A DNA stretch of 64,000 nucleotides from Candidatus Azambacteria bacterium. Lineage in GTDB: Bacteria > Patescibacteriota > Minisyncoccia > GWC2-36-17 > WO2-46-25. Positions 69 through 42,505 of this stretch are shown here, one piece after another. The notes beneath the pieces were generated by a model. It saw only the letters and a program-made list of their open reading frames with translations, made no database searches and was not told the DNA's origin. Numbering within the stretch: position 1 is the stretch's first letter; every line of letters starts with the position of its first letter. The stretch covers positions 86 to 64,085 of the forward strand of contig JACQDT010000021.1 of assembly GCA_016200965.1 (NCBI GenBank), given 5' to 3'. Both the position numbers and the translations under genes were made by a program.

Positions 69-1040
69 ATGTACGATGTACTTGTGGTGGGAAGCGGCAT
101 CGCGTCCTTTTCAGCGGCGATGTTCGCGGCCAAAAAAAAGGTTACGGTGCAGGTGATTGCCGATGCAACCGGCGGTCAGGCGGCGCGGCAATGGGACATG
201 TACAGTTATCCCGGGTATTTGGGCAAAGACGGCGACCCGCGAACCAAGAGAGCGGAGCAGTCGTCATATGACGGCGCACAATTGGTGCAGAACATACGAA
301 AACAAGCCGAAGAGCTTGGCGTGGCTGTTGCGGAGGCAGAAGGCGGCATTCAAAAAATTTCTTTTCGGCAGGAGCATAATCACGAGATTTTTATATTGGA
401 AGACGCTGGGGGGAATGTGTATGAAGGAAATACGGTTATCATCGCGTCGGGGAAAAAACCGAGAAAGCTTGGTGTGCCGGGAGAAGACGAATTCATCGGA
501 AAAGGGGTTTCGTACGGAATGGAGGAAAGCGCTCAGGCATTTGAGGGAAAGTCGGTAGCCGTGGTGGGCGCGGGGAATGCTGGCCTTGACGTCGCGCTCG
601 CGCTTTCAAAATACGCCAAGAAGCTCTCTATCGTGGAAGTAGGAGATCGCGCAGGAGGCGACAAGTCAACGCAGGAAAAACTCGCGCAGAGTAAAAACGT
701 TGTATATATATTGAACGCGGCGGTGCAGAAAATTATCGGCAACGAGTGGGTTGGCGGCGTAGAATATATAAGCAAAACAACAGGAGAAACGAATCAGCTG
801 GAAGTGGATCAGGTATTCGTGACCACCGGAATGAATCCTAATTCTGATTTTCTCCGGGGATTTTGCGAGGTCAATCAGAGCGGCGAAGTGGTCATTAATC
901 CCCGCACGAATGCCACGAGCCATGTGGGAGTGTTCGCGGCGGGCGATGTAACCGATATTCCTGAAAAAGAGGCGATTATCGCGGCGGGCGAAGGCGCAAA
1001 AGCAGCCCTGCAATGCGTGAAGTGGCTTGTGGATAGGTAA
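69..1040 (+). CDS. Thioredoxin-reductase-like FAD/NAD(P) flavoprotein lacking the CxxC redox motif; carries an in-frame family-A repeat
   Basis: N-terminal GxGxxS FAD Rossmann and second GAGNAG NAD(P) Rossmann; colinear with the downstream TrxB, but the CxxC position reads YGMEESAQ; 14-aa insert DPRTKRAEQSSYDG relative to the paralog. Confidence 0.8.
   Translation: MYDVLVVGSGIASFSAAMFAAKKKVTVQVIADATGGQAARQWDMYSYPGYLGKDGDPRTKRAEQSSYDGAQLVQNIRKQAEELGVAVAEAEGGIQKISFRQEHNHEIFILEDAGGNVYEGNTVIIASGKKPRKLGVPGEDEFIGKGVSYGMEESAQAFEGKSVAVVGAGNAGLDVALALSKYAKKLSIVEVGDRAGGDKSTQEKLAQSKNVVYILNAAVQKIIGNEWVGGVEYISKTTGETNQLEVDQVFVTTGMNPNSDFLRGFCEVNQSGEVVINPRTNATSHVGVFAAGDVTDIPEKEAIIAAGEGAKAALQCVKWLVDR
234..275 (+). 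repeat. Family-A 42-nt repeat unit, in frame in the TrxR-like gene
   Basis: acccgcgaaccaagagagcggagcagtcgtcatatgacgg matches the units at 40473-40555, 42388-42471 and 14688-14712/14778-14798. Confidence 0.85.
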
Positions 1041-3985: not shown

Positions 3986-4735
3986 ATGTCCGAAATAATC
4001 CCTGCAATCATCGCGAAAGACAAAGAAGAATTGCAGCGCAAGCTCTCCTTGGTGGAGGGCCTTGTTTCGTGGGCGCAGATCGACGTGACCGACGGCGTAT
4101 TCACGCCGGCAACGACGTGGCCTTACGTCGACGGCGTAATTTCCAATTTCCAATTTCCAATTTCCAAACTTAATTTGGAAGTTCATCTTATGGTAAAAAA
4201 TCCTGAACATACGATTGCCAACTGGCTTGCTTCGCCCGTGAAACGCATTTTGCTTCATTACGAATCAACCGCGCCGGAGCGCATAGCGGAGTTAATCGGA
4301 AAAATTACCGCATCAGGCAAAGAAGCGGGGCTCGTTTTGAAATTAGAAACTCCTCTCTCTGTTCTTGACGATCTGTTTCACGCTTCACGCTCCCTGTTTG
4401 TCCAAGAGCGAAGCGATTGGCAACAAACAGCAGTCCAGCGAGGCCACAGGCAGAGTCGTGGCTTCACGCTTCACGTTGTACAACTCATGGGTATCGCCGA
4501 AATCGGCTACTACGGGCATGGATTTGAGCCGTACGCGCTTGACCGCATCAAGGCGTTGCGGGCAAAATATCCGGATGTTACAATAGAAGTAGATGGCGGA
4601 GTGAATCTAGAAAATGCTTCGGTGATTGCGCGGGCGGGAGCGGATAATCTTATTTCAGGAAGCGCGATTTTCAAAACTGACGACGTGAAGGGGGCGATTG
4701 ATGAGTTTAAATCTATCCTACGTTCTACTCCCTAA
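3986..4735 (+). CDS. rpe: Ribulose-phosphate 3-epimerase with an in-frame repeat-element insertion
   Basis: N-terminal IDVTDG...HLMV and C-terminal EVDGGVN...ISGSAIF Rpe motifs; ~32 extra aa (FHASRSLFVQERSDWQQTAVQRGHRQSRGFTLH) where homologs are colinear. Confidence 0.85.
   Translation: MSEIIPAIIAKDKEELQRKLSLVEGLVSWAQIDVTDGVFTPATTWPYVDGVISNFQFPISKLNLEVHLMVKNPEHTIANWLASPVKRILLHYESTAPERIAELIGKITASGKEAGLVLKLETPLSVLDDLFHASRSLFVQERSDWQQTAVQRGHRQSRGFTLHVVQLMGIAEIGYYGHGFEPYALDRIKALRAKYPDVTIEVDGGVNLENASVIARAGADNLISGSAIFKTDDVKGAIDEFKSILRSTP
4138..4165 (+). repeat. Heptanucleotide tandem repeat (AATTTCC)x4 inside the rpe coding sequence
   Basis: Four perfect 7-nt units read directly, encoding ISNFQFPISK; followed by the palindrome ttccaaacttaatttggaa. 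Confidence 0.9.
4377..4475 (+). repeat. Family-B repeat element (quasi-palindromic core ~4389-4463) flanked by direct repeats ttcacgcttcacg; 99 nt total, in frame in rpe
   Basis: Core ctccctgtttgtccaagagcgaagcgattggcaacaaacagcagtccagcgaggcc..gagtcgtggct recurs reverse-complemented at 14713-14777; ctgtttgtccaa/ttggcaacaaacag forms an imperfect hairpin. Confidence 0.85.
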
Positions 4736-9103: not shown

Positions 9104-10336
9104 ATGTTTTCATTTTTAAAGAAAAAAACAGGACAGGCGGCGGGAAAAGATATCGGGTTTGAAGAGCGGGAGCGGAAAACGCCCATCGCGGGGTATGTGT
9201 TGCTGATTGCGATGACAATCGTATCGTTATGGCTTGGGTTTACCGCGCTTTCCGATTTAGAAAATGTGCCCGCAAAGCCGCAAGCGCTTTCTTCCTGTTC
9301 GGTGCCATTTATTTCATACGGCTGGCAGGATGCGTGGCGTTTTAGCGGCACGTATTACGAATACTCCGTAAAACCGGTCTATAGCCCTGAAGCCGCATTT
9401 CCGTACCAAGTAAGACCTCCGTCGGCACAACCCTGCGTGTTTTCGGACATTGAAACAAAGCGCGGCGTCGCGGGCGCATTTGCGCAGACGAAAGGAACGC
9501 GCGATCAGATCGCGAATCTGCAAAATCAGTCAAATCAGAAACAAAACGCGCTTTCACAGCTGGATTCCCAAATTAATGAACTGCGGCGGCAATATGAACT
9601 TTCAATAGGAGAAAAAGGCGCAAAAGTATCCGGAGGAATCTATAACATCGGAGAATTACAGACGAAGTTAAAACCATTTGAGGAACAGAAGACGGCATTG
9701 GTGAATGAAGTTGCGAACATTCAGAATCAAATAAGCGCGGCATCCGATCAACTAAAGCCGTTCAACGAGAAACTGCGGGCGCTCTACAAAGAAGTGCTTG
9801 CGGACTGGCGCGTCCAGTGGCGGTGGTATGAGTTATGGGCATTCCTTCTCCAGGGACTTTTCGTGTTCCCGTTTTTCTTTATCATGCTGAAGACATATTT
9901 CCGCTTGAGCGCGAAAAACAGTCCGTATACCGTCATTGCCACCTTCACGCTTGCCACAGCATCCATTTTCGTCGTTAAAATCGCATGCGTGTATTTCTGG
10001 TCGCTGCTTTTGGCGGCGATTTTGGAAGCATTATGGGACCTTATCAACCGGATTCAGATACTCAAGAGCATTATCACGTATGCGGGAATGTTGCTGACAA
10101 TCGTCTTATTCGGCGGCGCGGTGTATTTGCTCCAGCGCAAGATTTTCAACCCTGCGCGGGTCGCTTTGCGTTATTTAAGGGATAAACGTTGCCCGTCCTG
10201 CCAGTTTTCTCTTGAGCTTTCCAAGAATTTCTGTCCGCATTGCGGAGAACAGATCCTAGAGAAATGTCCGAAATGCCATAGCGCGCGCTTTATACGGATG
10301 GCCGTGTGCCCGCACTGCGGAGATAGAAAAACATAG
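9104..10336 (+). CDS. Hypothetical membrane protein with a coiled-coil ectodomain and a C-terminal double zinc ribbon
   Basis: N-terminal TM; Q/N-rich heptad region; 3-4 further TMs; C-terminal CPSC..CPHC..CPKC..CPHC. Confidence 0.6.
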   Translation: MFSFLKKKTGQAAGKDIGFEERERKTPIAGYVLLIAMTIVSLWLGFTALSDLENVPAKPQALSSCSVPFISYGWQDAWRFSGTYYEYSVKPVYSPEAAFPYQVRPPSAQPCVFSDIETKRGVAGAFAQTKGTRDQIANLQNQSNQKQNALSQLDSQINELRRQYELSIGEKGAKVSGGIYNIGELQTKLKPFEEQKTALVNEVANIQNQISAASDQLKPFNEKLRALYKEVLADWRVQWRWYELWAFLLQGLFVFPFFFIMLKTYFRLSAKNSPYTVIATFTLATASIFVVKIACVYFWSLLLAAILEALWDLINRIQILKSIITYAGMLLTIVLFGGAVYLLQRKIFNPARVALRYLRDKRCPSCQFSLELSKNFCPHCGEQILEKCPKCHSARFIRMAVCPHCGDRKT

Positions 10337-14188: not shown

Positions 14189-14749
14189 ATGCCACTTACA
14201 AAAAAACAAAAAGGAGAAATCATAAATTCGGTTGTTGAAAAGTTTTCCAAGAGCAAAACCCTTATTTTTACCTACTTCACGAAAATAAGCGTGGAAAAAA
14301 TCAAAAAATTGCGAAAGAATTTGAAGATGAAAGGATCTGATTTTAAGGTGATAAAAAAGAGCTTGCTTGGGGTGGCGCTGGAAAAAGCGAAGATCAACAT
14401 TGAAGGGATTGACGTGGAAAAAGCGTTTGATGCGGTCGGCGTCGTATTCGGCGGAAAAGATCAGATTCAGATCGCAAGGGCTGTTTCTGTGTTCGCGCGC
14501 GCCAAGAGCAATGAGACGTTCAAGGTGCTTGGCGGGGCATTTGACGGACAATTTGCGGGAGTAGAAAAAATCACCGCATTGGCAAGAATGTCTTCACAGG
14601 AAGAATTGTATGCGCGGCTTTTGGGACAATTCAAGGCCCCTTTGTCGCGGCTCGCATATGTGTTGAAAGCGGTTTCAGAGAAACGGCAACCCGCGAACGC
14701 AGAGAGCGGAGCCACGACTCGGCAGGCCTCGCTGGACTGCTGTTTGTAA
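14189..14749 (+). CDS. rplJ: Ribosomal protein L10 with a C-terminus rewritten by a composite A/B repeat insertion
   Basis: L10 N-terminal ~165 aa conserved; last ~20 aa (RQPANAESGATTRQASLDCCL) are encoded by repeat sequence in a different frame. Confidence 0.85.
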   Translation: MPLTKKQKGEIINSVVEKFSKSKTLIFTYFTKISVEKIKKLRKNLKMKGSDFKVIKKSLLGVALEKAKINIEGIDVEKAFDAVGVVFGGKDQIQIARAVSVFARAKSNETFKVLGGAFDGQFAGVEKITALARMSSQEELYARLLGQFKAPLSRLAYVLKAVSEKRQPANAESGATTRQASLDCCL

Positions 14750-14798
14750 CCAATCGCTTTGCTCTTGGACAAACAGGGAGCAGTCGTCGCATGACGGC
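14688..14798 (+). repeat. Composite repeat: family-A unit (14688-14712, 14778-14798) interrupted by a reverse-complement family-B core (14713-14777)
   Basis: aacccgcgaacgcagagagcggagc | B(rc) | agcagtcgtcgcatgacggc; B insertion flanked by ggagc/ggagc. Confidence 0.85.
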
Positions 14799-40186: not shown

Positions 40187-42505
40187 TTATTCCGGATGCA
40201 CTTTCGCCGCGCGTTCGCGCAGATAGCGTTTCAACAGAGGATGACCCTCCAATGAAGGGTCTTCTTTCATAATGCGCAGAGCTTCATCGCGCGTCTCCTT
40301 GACCAGCGCGGCGTCCGCCAGCGATGCCATTGCAAGATCAGGAAGACCCCATTGGCGCGTTCCCAGGAAATCACCCGGGCCGCGCAGAGCCAAGTCCTTT
40401 TCCGCAAGCGCAAATCCACTGTGCGATTCAAGCAGGGCTTTCAAGCGGCGATTTTCCTCCGGTGCCGCACTGCCGTCATACGACGACTGCTCCGCTCTCT
40501 GCGTTCGCGGGTTGTCGTCATACGACGACTGCTCCGCTCTCTGCGTTCGCGGGTTGCCTGAAAAAAGCAGGCAGTATGACTGGTGCTCGCCTCTGCCGAC
40601 CCTGCCGCGAAACTGATGCAGTTGCGCAAGTCCGAACAGTTCCGCGCCTTCTACCATCATGACGGTCGCATTGGGCACATCAATACCCACTTCCACCACC
40701 GACGTAGACACGAGAATATCCGCGCCACCGTTTTTGAACTTTTTCATCGTTTCTTCTTTCTCCTTCGCTTTCATTTTTCCGTGAAGCATTACGACCCGCA
40801 GATCCGGAAACATCTCTGCCGATAGTTTTCTATACTCCTCTTTCACTGTTTTCACTTCCGCCGAAAGAAATTGCCGCACAGTAGCAGGGGACAACTCACT
40901 TCCAACTTCAATCCGAGGACAAATAACAAATATCTGTCTGCCTTCTTTTGCTTGCTTTCTGATAAATGCGTACGCCGCCTGACGATGTGCGGGAAGCACG
41001 ATCTTGGTAATGACCTTTTTTCTTTCTTTGGGCATCTCATCAAGCAGTGAAATATCAAGGTCTCCGTATAGCGTGAGGGCAAGCGTGCGCGGAATCGGGG
41101 TGGCAGTCATACTTAACAAATGGGGAGCCGCACCAACGCGGCTTGTTTTTACAAGTGCCGCGCGTTGTTTGACGCCGAAGCGATGCTGTTCGTCCAGCAC
41201 CACAAGCCCTAATTTGCGAAATACGCAATTTTTTGAGATAAGCGCGTGCGTGCCCACGACCACCGGCAACGCGCCTTGGGCAATCATCTGTATAACATCC
41301 TGTTTTTTCATTTTCCTGTCCGCGCGCAATTCTCCGTCGTGGACGATCGCCTGAGCGCCCGTCAGCAATCCCACGTCACATCCGAACAATGCAAAGAACT
41401 GTGCAAATACTGAAAAATGCTGAAGCGCGAGCACCTCGGTGGGCGCCATCAGGGCGATCTGCCATCCGTTTCGAGCGGCATTTAAAGCGGCAATCGCGGC
41501 GACCACCGTTTTTCCCGAGCCGACTTCGCCTTGCAACAGACGGTTCATCGGGAACGGTTTTTGCATATCTTTTAATATTTCCCATGCCGCGCGGCGCTGG
41601 GCATCCGTCAGCCGGAAGGGGAGTAGGGACACGAATCGTTTCACCGCTTCAAGGTCAAGCGCAAGAGGGGGCGCGGATTCTTTTTTGACGGCGTTCTTCG
41701 CTTCCAACGCCAAAAGGTGGAGGAAAAATAATTCTTCAAACGCAAGGCGTTTTCTCGCGCGCGCGCTCTCTTCTTTTGTGCGCGGAAAATGGATTTCCCT
41801 CAATGCCGCCCCCAACGCAGGAAGCCGATGGCGGCGCAGAGTGTCTTGCGGAAGCGGATCAGTGATATGTGAAATGAACGGCAGGGCGTTTTTCATCAGA
41901 TATCTCAACCAACGGGAAGTAATGCCTGCCGTTTCGCGATACACCGGAACCAGGCGGCCGGTGTGCGTCGCGACACCGTCTTTCGCGACGAATTCATACG
42001 CTGGATTTTGAAGTACCAGCGATGTTTTGTCAGCTGTTATTTTCCCCGAAAGATTCACCATCCTGCCGACACGCAAATTTTTTGTGAGGAACGGCTGGTT
42101 GAACCACACCGCGCGCATGCTTCCGGTCCCGTCGGAAATCACCGCTTCGGTAAGATGCATGCGTCTTTTCCATGTGTGCGCGCTTTCCACCCGCTCCAAT
42201 TTTCCGGAGATGGTCGCGACGGCGCCCGCTTTCACGTCCGCTATGGACACTTTTTTGGAAAAATCATCGTAGCGGAACGGCACGTGCATGAGCAGATCGT
42301 ACACCGTACGGATGCCGAGCGCGGCGAGCGGCTTGATGATTGTGGCACTTGCTCCTTTTAATTTTTCAATAGGGGAGAGAAGCGATGTGTCGTCATACGA
42401 CGACTGCTCCGCTCTCGGGGTTCGCGGGTTGCCGTCATACGACGACTGCTCCGCTCTCTGGGTTCGCGGGTTGCCGTCTTTCAGATGAAGAGATGATTTT
42501 AACAT
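40187..42505 (-). CDS. recG: ATP-dependent DNA helicase RecG carrying tandem family-A repeat dimers near both termini
   Basis: GEVGSGKT Walker A, DEQHRFG motif II and helicase C domain; inserts GNPRTQRAEQSSYDGNPRTPRAEQSSYDD (N-term) and GNPRTQRAEQSSYDDNPRTQRAEQSSYDG (C-term, just before the conserved ..LAEKDLALRGPGD); start taken at MLKSS. Confidence 0.88.
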   Translation of the reverse strand: MLKSSLHLKDGNPRTQRAEQSSYDGNPRTPRAEQSSYDDTSLLSPIEKLKGASATIIKPLAALGIRTVYDLLMHVPFRYDDFSKKVSIADVKAGAVATISGKLERVESAHTWKRRMHLTEAVISDGTGSMRAVWFNQPFLTKNLRVGRMVNLSGKITADKTSLVLQNPAYEFVAKDGVATHTGRLVPVYRETAGITSRWLRYLMKNALPFISHITDPLPQDTLRRHRLPALGAALREIHFPRTKEESARARKRLAFEELFFLHLLALEAKNAVKKESAPPLALDLEAVKRFVSLLPFRLTDAQRRAAWEILKDMQKPFPMNRLLQGEVGSGKTVVAAIAALNAARNGWQIALMAPTEVLALQHFSVFAQFFALFGCDVGLLTGAQAIVHDGELRADRKMKKQDVIQMIAQGALPVVVGTHALISKNCVFRKLGLVVLDEQHRFGVKQRAALVKTSRVGAAPHLLSMTATPIPRTLALTLYGDLDISLLDEMPKERKKVITKIVLPAHRQAAYAFIRKQAKEGRQIFVICPRIEVGSELSPATVRQFLSAEVKTVKEEYRKLSAEMFPDLRVVMLHGKMKAKEKEETMKKFKNGGADILVSTSVVEVGIDVPNATVMMVEGAELFGLAQLHQFRGRVGRGEHQSYCLLFSGNPRTQRAEQSSYDDNPRTQRAEQSSYDGSAAPEENRRLKALLESHSGFALAEKDLALRGPGDFLGTRQWGLPDLAMASLADAALVKETRDEALRIMKEDPSLEGHPLLKRYLRERAAKVHPE
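40473..40555 (-). repeat. Family-A repeat, tandem dimer (2 x 42 nt), in frame in the recG 3' region
   Basis: Two units ccgtcatacgacgactgctccgctctctgcgttcgcgggtt read directly. Confidence 0.9.
42388..42471 (-). repeat. Family-A repeat, tandem dimer (2 x 42 nt), in frame in the recG 5' region
   Basis: Two units gtcgtcatacgacgactgctccgctctc(g/t)gggttcgcgggtt read directly. Confidence 0.9.

Follow-up and report, generated by a model that had tools for sequence, protein, structure and literature searches.

Rickettsia palindromic elements (RPE) were reportedly described by Ogata et al. in 2000, and the RPE-1 family measures about 100-150 nt. Miniature inverted-repeat transposable elements (MITEs), for example the Correia elements of Neisseria, possess terminal inverted repeats of 15-30 bp and a fixed target site duplication (TSD) such as TA, and the insertion sequence (IS) IS608 of the IS200/IS605 family has a conserved target 5' of its left end. 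As for repetitive extragenic palindromes (REPs), these are mostly extragenic, and those of the CGTC super-family have a terminal CGTC, an 8-9-bp stem starting with AT, a loop of 4-5 nt and a CCA tail, their dimers being mostly head-to-head (Di Nocera et al. 2013, PMC3733652). Intragenic REPs of the GTAG and CGTC super-families consist of 20-40-nt units encoding about 10-15 aa; over half of these insertions consist of dimers or groups (20-30 aa), single genes may hold two of them, and the hosts are often replication and repair genes such as uvrA and uvrB (PMC3733652). Here we describe a 42-nt unit that occurs as two tandem dimers in recG, the gene of ATP-dependent DNA helicase RecG, in a stretch of 64,000 nt from Candidatus Azambacteria bacterium (assembly GCA_016200965.1, contig JACQDT010000021.1, positions 86 to 64,085; hereafter the window). 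We class the unit as a new family of in-frame elements similar to RPEs and intragenic REPs, and probably as a sequence family of its own in Parcubacteria. The recG dimers are quite probably copies of a putatively hairpin-forming, non-autonomous miniature mobile repeat, each doubled in place.

Tandem Repeats Finder detected two arrays of period 42 in the window, at 40474-40556 (2.0 copies, 100% match) and 42391-42478 (2.1 copies, 97%). A scan of the window with the 42-nt pattern, allowing up to three mismatches, gave exactly four units, all of them in recG (0 expected from 100 shuffles; Table 1). The units of each dimer lie head-to-tail and in the recG frame, and the encoded unit peptide is GNPRTQRAEQSSYD. 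An earlier note on this DNA had claimed in-frame, head-to-tail 42-nt dimers near both ends of the protein, and repeat finder, pattern scan and frame all agree with it. Their placement, given there as after residue ~10 and before a conserved motif, was also right: in the N-terminal context MLKSSLHLKD-GNPRTQRAEQSSYD-GNPRTPRAEQSSYD-DTSLL the dimer starts after residue 10, and in the C-terminal context CLLFS-GNPRTQRAEQSSYD-DNPRTQRAEQSSYD-GSAAPEE it lies about 22 residues ahead of LAEKDLALRGPGD. The protein has Pfam matches to RecG_wedge (58-210), DEAD (301-475), Helicase_C (552-638) and RecG_dom3_C (696-753) and 8000 homologues at E<=1e-30, the nearest full-length orthologues being 57-65% identical. 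Both 28-residue blocks are absent from 10/10 aligned full-length RecG orthologues, whose linker at the C-terminal site comprises 7 residues without the insert. The recG copies are therefore insertions and not ancestral sequence, and two independent dimer insertions of a dispersed repeat, as had been proposed, are borne out. Orthologue P0002 likewise begins with MLKSSLH, which supports the recG start codon at MLKSS. Reading by eye from the N-terminal dimer as far as the conserved segment PIEKLKG showed no in-frame ATG, GTG or TTG, so that this dimer is translated.

Table 1. Positions of recG, of the repeat copies in the window and of the conserved non-coding module in other Parcubacteria loci
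Feature	Contig	Position	Strand	Remarks
recG (ATP-dependent DNA helicase RecG)	window	40187-42505	minus	772 aa from the MLKSS start; open reading frame (ORF), Pfam and homology; host of both dimers
N-terminal tandem dimer	window	42392-42475	minus	units 42434-42475 and 42392-42433; residues 11-38, ahead of the wedge domain
C-terminal tandem dimer	window	40475-40558	minus	units 40517-40558 and 40475-40516; residues 649-676, variable linker between Helicase_C and RecG_dom3_C
Single unit, in frame	window	231-272	plus	GDPRTKRAEQSSYD; in ORF 69-1040, thioredoxin-reductase-like pyridine nucleotide-disulphide oxidoreductase, Pfam Pyr_redox_2
Long form (111 nt), rplJ 3' end	window	14685-14795	plus	unit 5' part 14685-14712, 69 extra nt 14713-14781, then unit 3' part
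Hairpin module of the long form, alone	window	4389-4445	minus	in frame inside a 249-aa ORF, 3986-4735 (plus)
Non-coding module	L006	3958-4250	minus	
Non-coding module	L008	2886-3162		
Non-coding module	L009	1273-1451		
Non-coding module	L013	6127-6280	minus	
Non-coding module	L017	4742-4895		
Non-coding module	L045, L054, L055, L087, L110, L111			

The possibility that the dimers are repeat collapses or expansions arises because short-read metagenome assemblies can miscount tandem repeats, and because the N-terminal dimer has been seen in one assembly only. We regard such an artefact as extremely improbable. A partial RecG from an NCBI metagenome-assembled genome (MAG) of Candidatus Azambacteria (contig JACOSM010000047, GCA_016178885.1; L122) is 100% identical, and this independent assembly, the contig of which covers the C-terminal site only, contains the same C-terminal dimer in the same copy number with two single-nucleotide polymorphisms (SNPs) in 1384 nt, one of them within unit 1. 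This recurrence makes an assembly artefact at the C-terminal site unlikely. Furthermore, 84 nt is well under read length, a SNP separates the units inside each dimer, the reading frame is kept in both dimers, and dimers and trimers recur across many independent projects. As a separate observation, of just two SNPs that separate the recG alleles, one is located within the 84 nt of the repeat; the G-to-A change GAGAGC to GAAAGC, which distinguishes the unit at 40517-40558 from L122, recurs in unit copies of L042 and L007, two unrelated loci among those introduced below.

An AlphaFold2 model of RecG, built on a 12-sequence alignment, had a mean predicted local distance difference test score (pLDDT) of 63.8, with residues 1-39 and 631-719 below 50. 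The model weakly suggests disorder of the insert regions, the whole surrounding stretch 631-719 scoring below 50 too. The inserts are probably harmless to the helicase, because one precedes the wedge domain and the other occupies the linker that leads to RecG_dom3_C.

Beyond what the earlier note had described, the unit belongs to a Parcubacteria-wide family that shows a strong frame bias, mimicry of its own target and a long form. Further copies were collected from 121 Patescibacteria loci (L001-L121), 19 of them from GTDB species genomes, found with a 25-base core pattern, and 102 from metagenomes, found with a second pattern. When the window and these loci were scanned at up to 10 mismatches, 177 units in 153 arrays were counted, namely 131 monomers, 20 dimers and two trimers; in each of the 22 multi-unit arrays, the units follow one another head-to-tail at a period of 42. 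Save for one 1.5-kb contig binned as Gammaproteobacteria, the 19 GTDB loci bear titles of the Patescibacteria group or candidate phyla radiation (CPR), or are named 'bacterium' only. The carriers include Giovannonibacteria, Zambryskibacteria, Liptonbacteria and one heavily loaded 'Saccharibacteria' MAG, and many contig names among the 102 metagenome loci are Rifle-like or Hainich groundwater ones. A search with the trimer peptide, uninformative for the cataloguing of monomers, collected 170 candidate clusters, one of them at E<=1, and shows that the family is rare. A viral origin of the unit was rejected, as two scans of viral contigs, with the unit pattern and with the pattern of the non-coding module treated below, gave 0 matches. 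In four loci (L052, L065, L103 and L027) variant unit ends (...GCAGTCGTCGCACCCAATGGCAACCC...) were observed, which point to a sub-family of related repeats that differ at the 3' end.

Among 122 arrays located in ORFs of at least 120 codons, 87 (~71%) are read in sense frame 0 (GNPRT...), 23 in other sense frames and 12 in antisense. Another 19 arrays (11 distinct) lie in a conserved non-coding module. Hosts confirmed by Pfam, with their domains intact, are methylpurine DNA glycosylase (MPG; four units), RarA/MgsA, Mfd, ThiI and MiaA; methionyl-, valyl-, arginyl-, isoleucyl- and phenylalanyl-tRNA synthetases were recognised by eye. For the most part, units persist in a single sense frame and at places in housekeeping proteins that are linkers or termini. 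CPR genomes are tiny and streamlined, so that tolerated selfish DNA inside essential genes is unexpected. The family marks recent insertion for the purposes of annotation and accounts for Parcubacteria proteins of outlying length and for their blocks of 14 or 28 residues that fail to align, and it provides natural experiments on loops of RecG, Mfd, MPG, tRNA synthetases and further proteins that tolerate 14-42 extra residues.

Like RPEs, the units are short, dispersed and potentially hairpin-capable, reside in frame in functional housekeeping genes and have no transposase of their own; the consistent frame yields a hydrophilic peptide in loops or termini, and the hosts are bacteria with reduced genomes and a host-dependent life. 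Unlike RPE-1 with its ~100-150 nt, the Parcubacteria unit has 42 nt and its long form 111-114 nt; furthermore, the units build head-to-tail tandem arrays and are near-identical across several Parcubacteria orders, not within one genus. The two also belong to different phyla. Similarity to intragenic REPs extends to the dimers, the two inserts per gene and the repair hosts (recG, mfd, MPG, rarA), and the reverse strand of the unit begins with CGTC (CGTCATACGACG), as in CGTC REPs. In contrast to these, however, the CGTC/GACG stem has only 4 bp, the loop of the main hairpin measures 11 nt, a CCA tail is lacking, units pair head-to-tail (22/22 multi-unit arrays), and the family is mostly intragenic, with ~120 of 153 arrays in long ORFs. 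Membership in the CGTC REPs was ruled out by this hairpin geometry. Rfam had no match for the unit family, and a full-text literature search combining Patescibacteria, CPR or Parcubacteria with REP, RPE or MITE returned nothing relevant among the top-ranked papers.

The unit consensus is GGCAACCCGCGAAC-NNN-GAGAGCGGAGCAGTCGTCGTATGAC, i.e. 42 nt or 14 codons. Most positions vary in at most 6% of the 137 distinct units, with no less constancy at third codon positions than at the other two. The exceptions are the triplet 15-17 (59/36/18%), positions 34 and 37 and the boundary positions 1-2 (14% and 10%). The hypervariable triplet lies in the loop of the inner CCCGC...GCGGAG hairpin and freely changes the peptide (Q, E, K, P, W). 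It could be imagined that the 14-residue peptide is a selected functional module, such as a degradation, localisation or interaction tag, and not selfish DNA; the 87 of 122 long-ORF arrays in one frame, the hydrophilic character of the peptide and the location of the inserts in the low-confidence regions of the RecG model would be in line with this. Nevertheless, we hold a selected peptide to be very improbable. Invariant third positions, together with a sole hypervariable spot that alters the peptide, argue against it, copies occur also in other sense frames, in antisense and in non-coding DNA, the hosts are functionally unrelated, and orthologues work without the unit. Conservation thus acts on DNA or RNA, not on the peptide, and its pattern fits recent spread, homogenisation or a constraint at the DNA/RNA level.

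As for folding, the recG dimers gave z-scores of -3.9 and -5.3 against shuffled sequences. The dimers fold far better than the shuffles because of a 16-nt quasi-palindrome, GTCGTC-GTAT-GACGGC, which is formed across the junction by the 3' end of a unit and the following GGC (GTCGTCGTATGAC|GGC). Covariation in the hairpin comprises five compensatory G-C to A-T changes at pair 33/42; at another pair there are 22 C-A mismatches.

Comparison of filled and empty sites shows that single units are gained. In mfd, L010 reads ...CCAAA-(42 nt)-GGCAACGCG where L062 reads ...CCAAAAGCAACGCC, a gain of exactly 42 nt (in longer context, ...TTTCCAAA-(42 nt)-GGCAACGCG vs ...TTTCCAAAAGCAACGCC). Likewise, two paralogues of the non-coding module in L087 differ by exactly one unit, ...AAAATTCGG-(42 nt)-AAAG in copy 1 vs ...AAAATTCGGAAAG in copy 2. 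At 88 distinct sites, the 3' flank repeats the first five bases of the unit, with G at 100%, then G at 92%, C at 86%, A at 65% and A at 73%; the 5' flank is a weak GAC (45-49%), like the unit's last three bases. The unit inserts beside sequences like its own 5' end (GG, GGC, GGCAA, GCAAC), and the flank consensus suggests a preferred target similar to the junction of two units, GAC|GGCAA. The length of the flanking repeat ranges from 2 to 6 nt, its sequence agreeing in every case with the start of the unit, and the unit termini have at most ~6 nt of inverted complementarity (GACGGC/GTCGTC). Examined for a replication-strand bias as a sign of single-strand transposition, the unit-sense strand is G-rich in 44 of 56 sense-oriented cases, a count confounded by coding-strand composition and accompanied by only 7 antisense cases.

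L010 and L062 have one mfd unit in common, which has diverged roughly to the extent of its flanks (4/42 positions vs 12-15%), and three further copies were gained in L010 after the split from L062. These three gains indicate that the family was recently active. In the shared mfd unit, the hypervariable triplet is the predominant variant of each genome (AGA in L010 vs GCA in L062), a hint that copies undergo gene conversion or that one target was hit independently in the two lineages.

With MITEs, the family shares non-autonomy, a short flanking duplication, full-length and internally deleted variants and nested insertions. Its inverted termini of at most ~6 nt are, however, unlike the 15-30 bp of MITEs, and the flanking repeat of 2-6 nt imitates the end of the element itself; a parent IS of the unit family was not seen. 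As in IS200/IS605 elements and REP-associated tyrosine transposases (RAYTs), i.e. HUH systems, insertion is exact and without a true TSD beside a short specific sequence, the end resembles the target, and there may be a dependence on a subterminal hairpin. Unlike in IS608, the strongly conserved flank of the Parcubacteria unit is 3' of the sense strand.

The remaining question is why the recG copies are dimers. Units differ by 1 nt inside each recG dimer and, slightly as stated in the earlier note, by 1-3 nt between the two sites. The sole difference between the N-terminal units is in the hypervariable triplet, CCA vs CCC; at another position ACC is found in both N-terminal units vs ACG in both C-terminal units. 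The pairwise comparison of units proposed there, when extended to the whole family, placed adjacent units closer together (1.8 nt on average) than units of different arrays on the same contig (3.6 nt) or all pairs (3.9 nt). Of the adjacent pairs, 18/22 agree in the hypervariable triplet, compared with 21/51 (41%) of the pairs from separate arrays of one contig and with 18% of pairs overall (Mann-Whitney p=2.8e-4, Fisher p=0.002). In addition, one MiaA site holds a monomer in L021 and L031 and a dimer in L042 and L061, with flanks ~90-95% identical; array copy number thus differs between close relatives at one site. Further monomer/dimer pairs are suggested by matching, unaligned flanks (L048, L095 and L106 vs L035; L056 vs L085). 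Variation in copy number between strains, raised before as a sign of slippage, was accordingly found at the MiaA site but not at recG, where the one other strain has the same C-terminal copy number. Taken together, triplet sharing, the monomer/dimer sites and the ACC/ACG split of recG make tandem duplication and contraction on the spot the best explanation of the dimers.

Of the two origins of the dimers offered earlier, local tandem amplification is therefore upheld by the 18/22 triplet sharing and by the monomer/dimer sites, and dimer-wise transposition, in which the 84-nt dimer is mobile and recG received two dimers directly, fared badly. It is true that recG has a dimer at each of its two sites when no more than ~14% of the sampled arrays are multi-unit, and that the GGC/GAC pattern of first and second units at the recG C-terminal site recurs in the dimers of L022 and L036. 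But 131/153 arrays are monomers, the two short-form gains that can be compared with an empty site are single 42-nt units, the same sites are seen as monomer and as dimer, and the recG dimers differ mutually at a position where each dimer's own units agree. We consider movement of whole dimers quite improbable.

If the recG dimers arose by doubling in place, one unit would have arrived first at each site and would then have been doubled by slipped-strand mispairing or by unequal recombination, with the repeat and the short homology at its flanks as partners. Mobilisation in trans, we infer, might be due to a hairpin-recognising enzyme (HUH/RAYT-like, acting on single strands) or to microhomology-driven template switching. 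The unit end recreates its own target (GAC|GGCAA), so that head-to-tail reinsertion could occur as well. Arrays might then grow by repeated site-specific insertion at the unit-unit junction (...GAC followed by GGC(AA)) and not by slippage. The target consensus equals this junction, L010 gained new single units after its split from L062, and in L046, L063, L076, L077, L082 and L097 the unit loop is broken at its GCA site by part of another copy. In these six loci, according to a listing of flanks, the unit 5' part (to ...GCGAAC) is followed by a shortened copy resuming at GCAACCC; the resumption point is the position of the hypervariable triplet, and the junction is like the usual GCA(A) target. 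However, a random donor would not give triplet sharing in 18/22 adjacent pairs vs 41% on the same contig, and a donor bias towards the neighbouring copy, which would be needed instead, is hard to tell from local duplication. Growth by repeated insertion is thus unlikely in our opinion, though it is the strongest competitor.

Several points weigh against in-place doubling of a mobile hairpin repeat. Mixed arrays with different hypervariable triplets (in L007, and in the L102 trimer with ACA, ACA and CAG) are equally in line with a new insertion next to a resident copy and with duplication and later divergence, and within the window the evidence for local duplication amounts to a single informative position. 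The N-terminal dimer is known from one assembly. A single unit folds no better than shuffled sequence (z = -1.1). Near-identical units across different Parcubacteria orders need horizontal spread, a conserved source or selection at the nucleotide level. Finally, no mobilising enzyme, TnpA and RAYT included, was identified in the 64-kb window and the short contigs, none having been systematically looked for.

A conserved source might be sought in the non-coding module of about 155 nt (Table 1), which is near-identical in 11 Parcubacteria lineages and always carries the 42-nt unit at the same position. The module has at least four sites of variable hairpin insertion, and its immediate flanks are unrelated between loci; a structured RNA and a small mobile module are both candidate identities. 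L087 (9830-10060, reverse strand, vs 9270-9470) contains the module a second time, in inverted orientation and short of precisely the 42-nt unit; the empty site of this copy shows a GG duplication. Ahead of this empty copy there is a sigma-70-like TTGACT-N17-TATTCT, and its 3' module is different. The module was also considered as protein-coding, which was rejected due to an in-frame TGA three codons upstream (L006, L009), frame shifts between lineages and the lack of a start codon.

The same position of the unit in 11 distinct lineages would suit an origin of the unit from a conserved small RNA, possibly as the tag-coding part of an RNA similar to transfer-messenger RNA (tmRNA). In the module, frame 0 runs to a conserved TGA, all four GGC-to-TGA length variants are multiples of three, and variable hairpins are expected of a structured RNA. 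Another frame of the unit reads QPANAESGAVVV followed by a stop codon, which is similar to a tmRNA tag (that of E. coli is ANDENYALAA). Nevertheless, ARAGORN and Rfam assigned no family to the module even at permissive thresholds, and it has no tRNA-like domain; no tmRNA was detected in the window or in L001-L121 (ARAGORN in normal and relaxed mode, Rfam at gathering thresholds and at E<=10). A complementary acceptor strand for the module was looked for and none was found. In the L087 paralogue exactly 42 nt are missing, so the unit is an insertion there too. On the grounds of the ARAGORN and Rfam nulls, the missing acceptor strand and the empty L087 paralogue, a tmRNA or other non-coding RNA origin was discarded, its probability being next to negligible.

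Downstream of the module by 0.6-1.2 kb, a second block of conserved non-coding sequence (for example ...GGAAAAGTCAA-hairpin-AAATTGTACGGAGTTTTCGGGGCAAAAAG...) is present in L006, L008, L009, L013, L017, L045, L054, L055, L087 and L110, and adjoins a tRNA gene in several loci. It abuts the reverse complement of a tRNA 3' end (TGGTGC), and the module starts with the same TGGTGC(AG). Module and second block may together form a small integrated cassette with att-like junctions.

These features can be joined into one wider reading, which we hold to be decidedly unlikely as a whole. The unit would be a currently active element, the 3' end of which rebuilds, with the flanking target, a hairpin and junction (GTCGTC-GTAT-GAC|GGC) serving as its own insertion site; this would allow exact insertion in multiples of 14 codons and seed head-to-tail arrays with no protein encoded, and the element may spread horizontally between Parcubacteria orders on the conserved, promoter-bearing ~155-nt non-coding carrier module. 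If true, the unit would stand for a new class of selfish DNA, minimal and translation-compatible, which relies either on a host single-strand nuclease put to a new use or on enzyme-free template switching. Because units are almost identical across orders, one can ask, in testable form, whether groundwater Parcubacteria that occur together exchange them horizontally, and how REP-like elements move in the absence of a dedicated transposase.

The long form of the element has 111-114 nt, a multiple of three. In the window it provides the last ~21 codons and the stop codon of ribosomal protein L10 (Pfam Ribosomal_L10), its 69 extra nt being bounded by a GGAGC direct repeat. The long form recurs in six other loci, the sequence that splits the unit being placed at 1929-2019 in L089, 1827-1911 in L010, 320-410 in L003, 4077-4192 in L024, 9740-10108 in L103 and 199-246 in L092. 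The L010 copy has 114 nt, lies in frame in mfd and is absent from L062. Some copies hold further nested hairpins, and the insert in L103 reaches ~290 nt. Of two candidate readings, one derives the 42-nt form from the long form by deletion, and the other takes the long form as the outcome of a nested insertion.

Two other copies in the window are listed in Table 1. The single unit at 231-272 is bordered by a GACGGCG direct repeat. Its host ORF and the ORF at 1027-1989 are adjoining, overlapping thioredoxin-reductase-like paralogues, and the unit is present in the first only. The solitary hairpin module at 4389-4445 has duplicated GTGAAGC heptads on both sides (region 4377-4475), and by eye its putative host product resembles ribulose-phosphate 3-epimerase. 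The cumulative GC skew of the window climbs to ~26-40 kb and then drops, with a flip of gene orientation at the same place, which suggests a replication terminus or origin inside the window. At all four element sites in the window, the sense strand is the G-rich strand.

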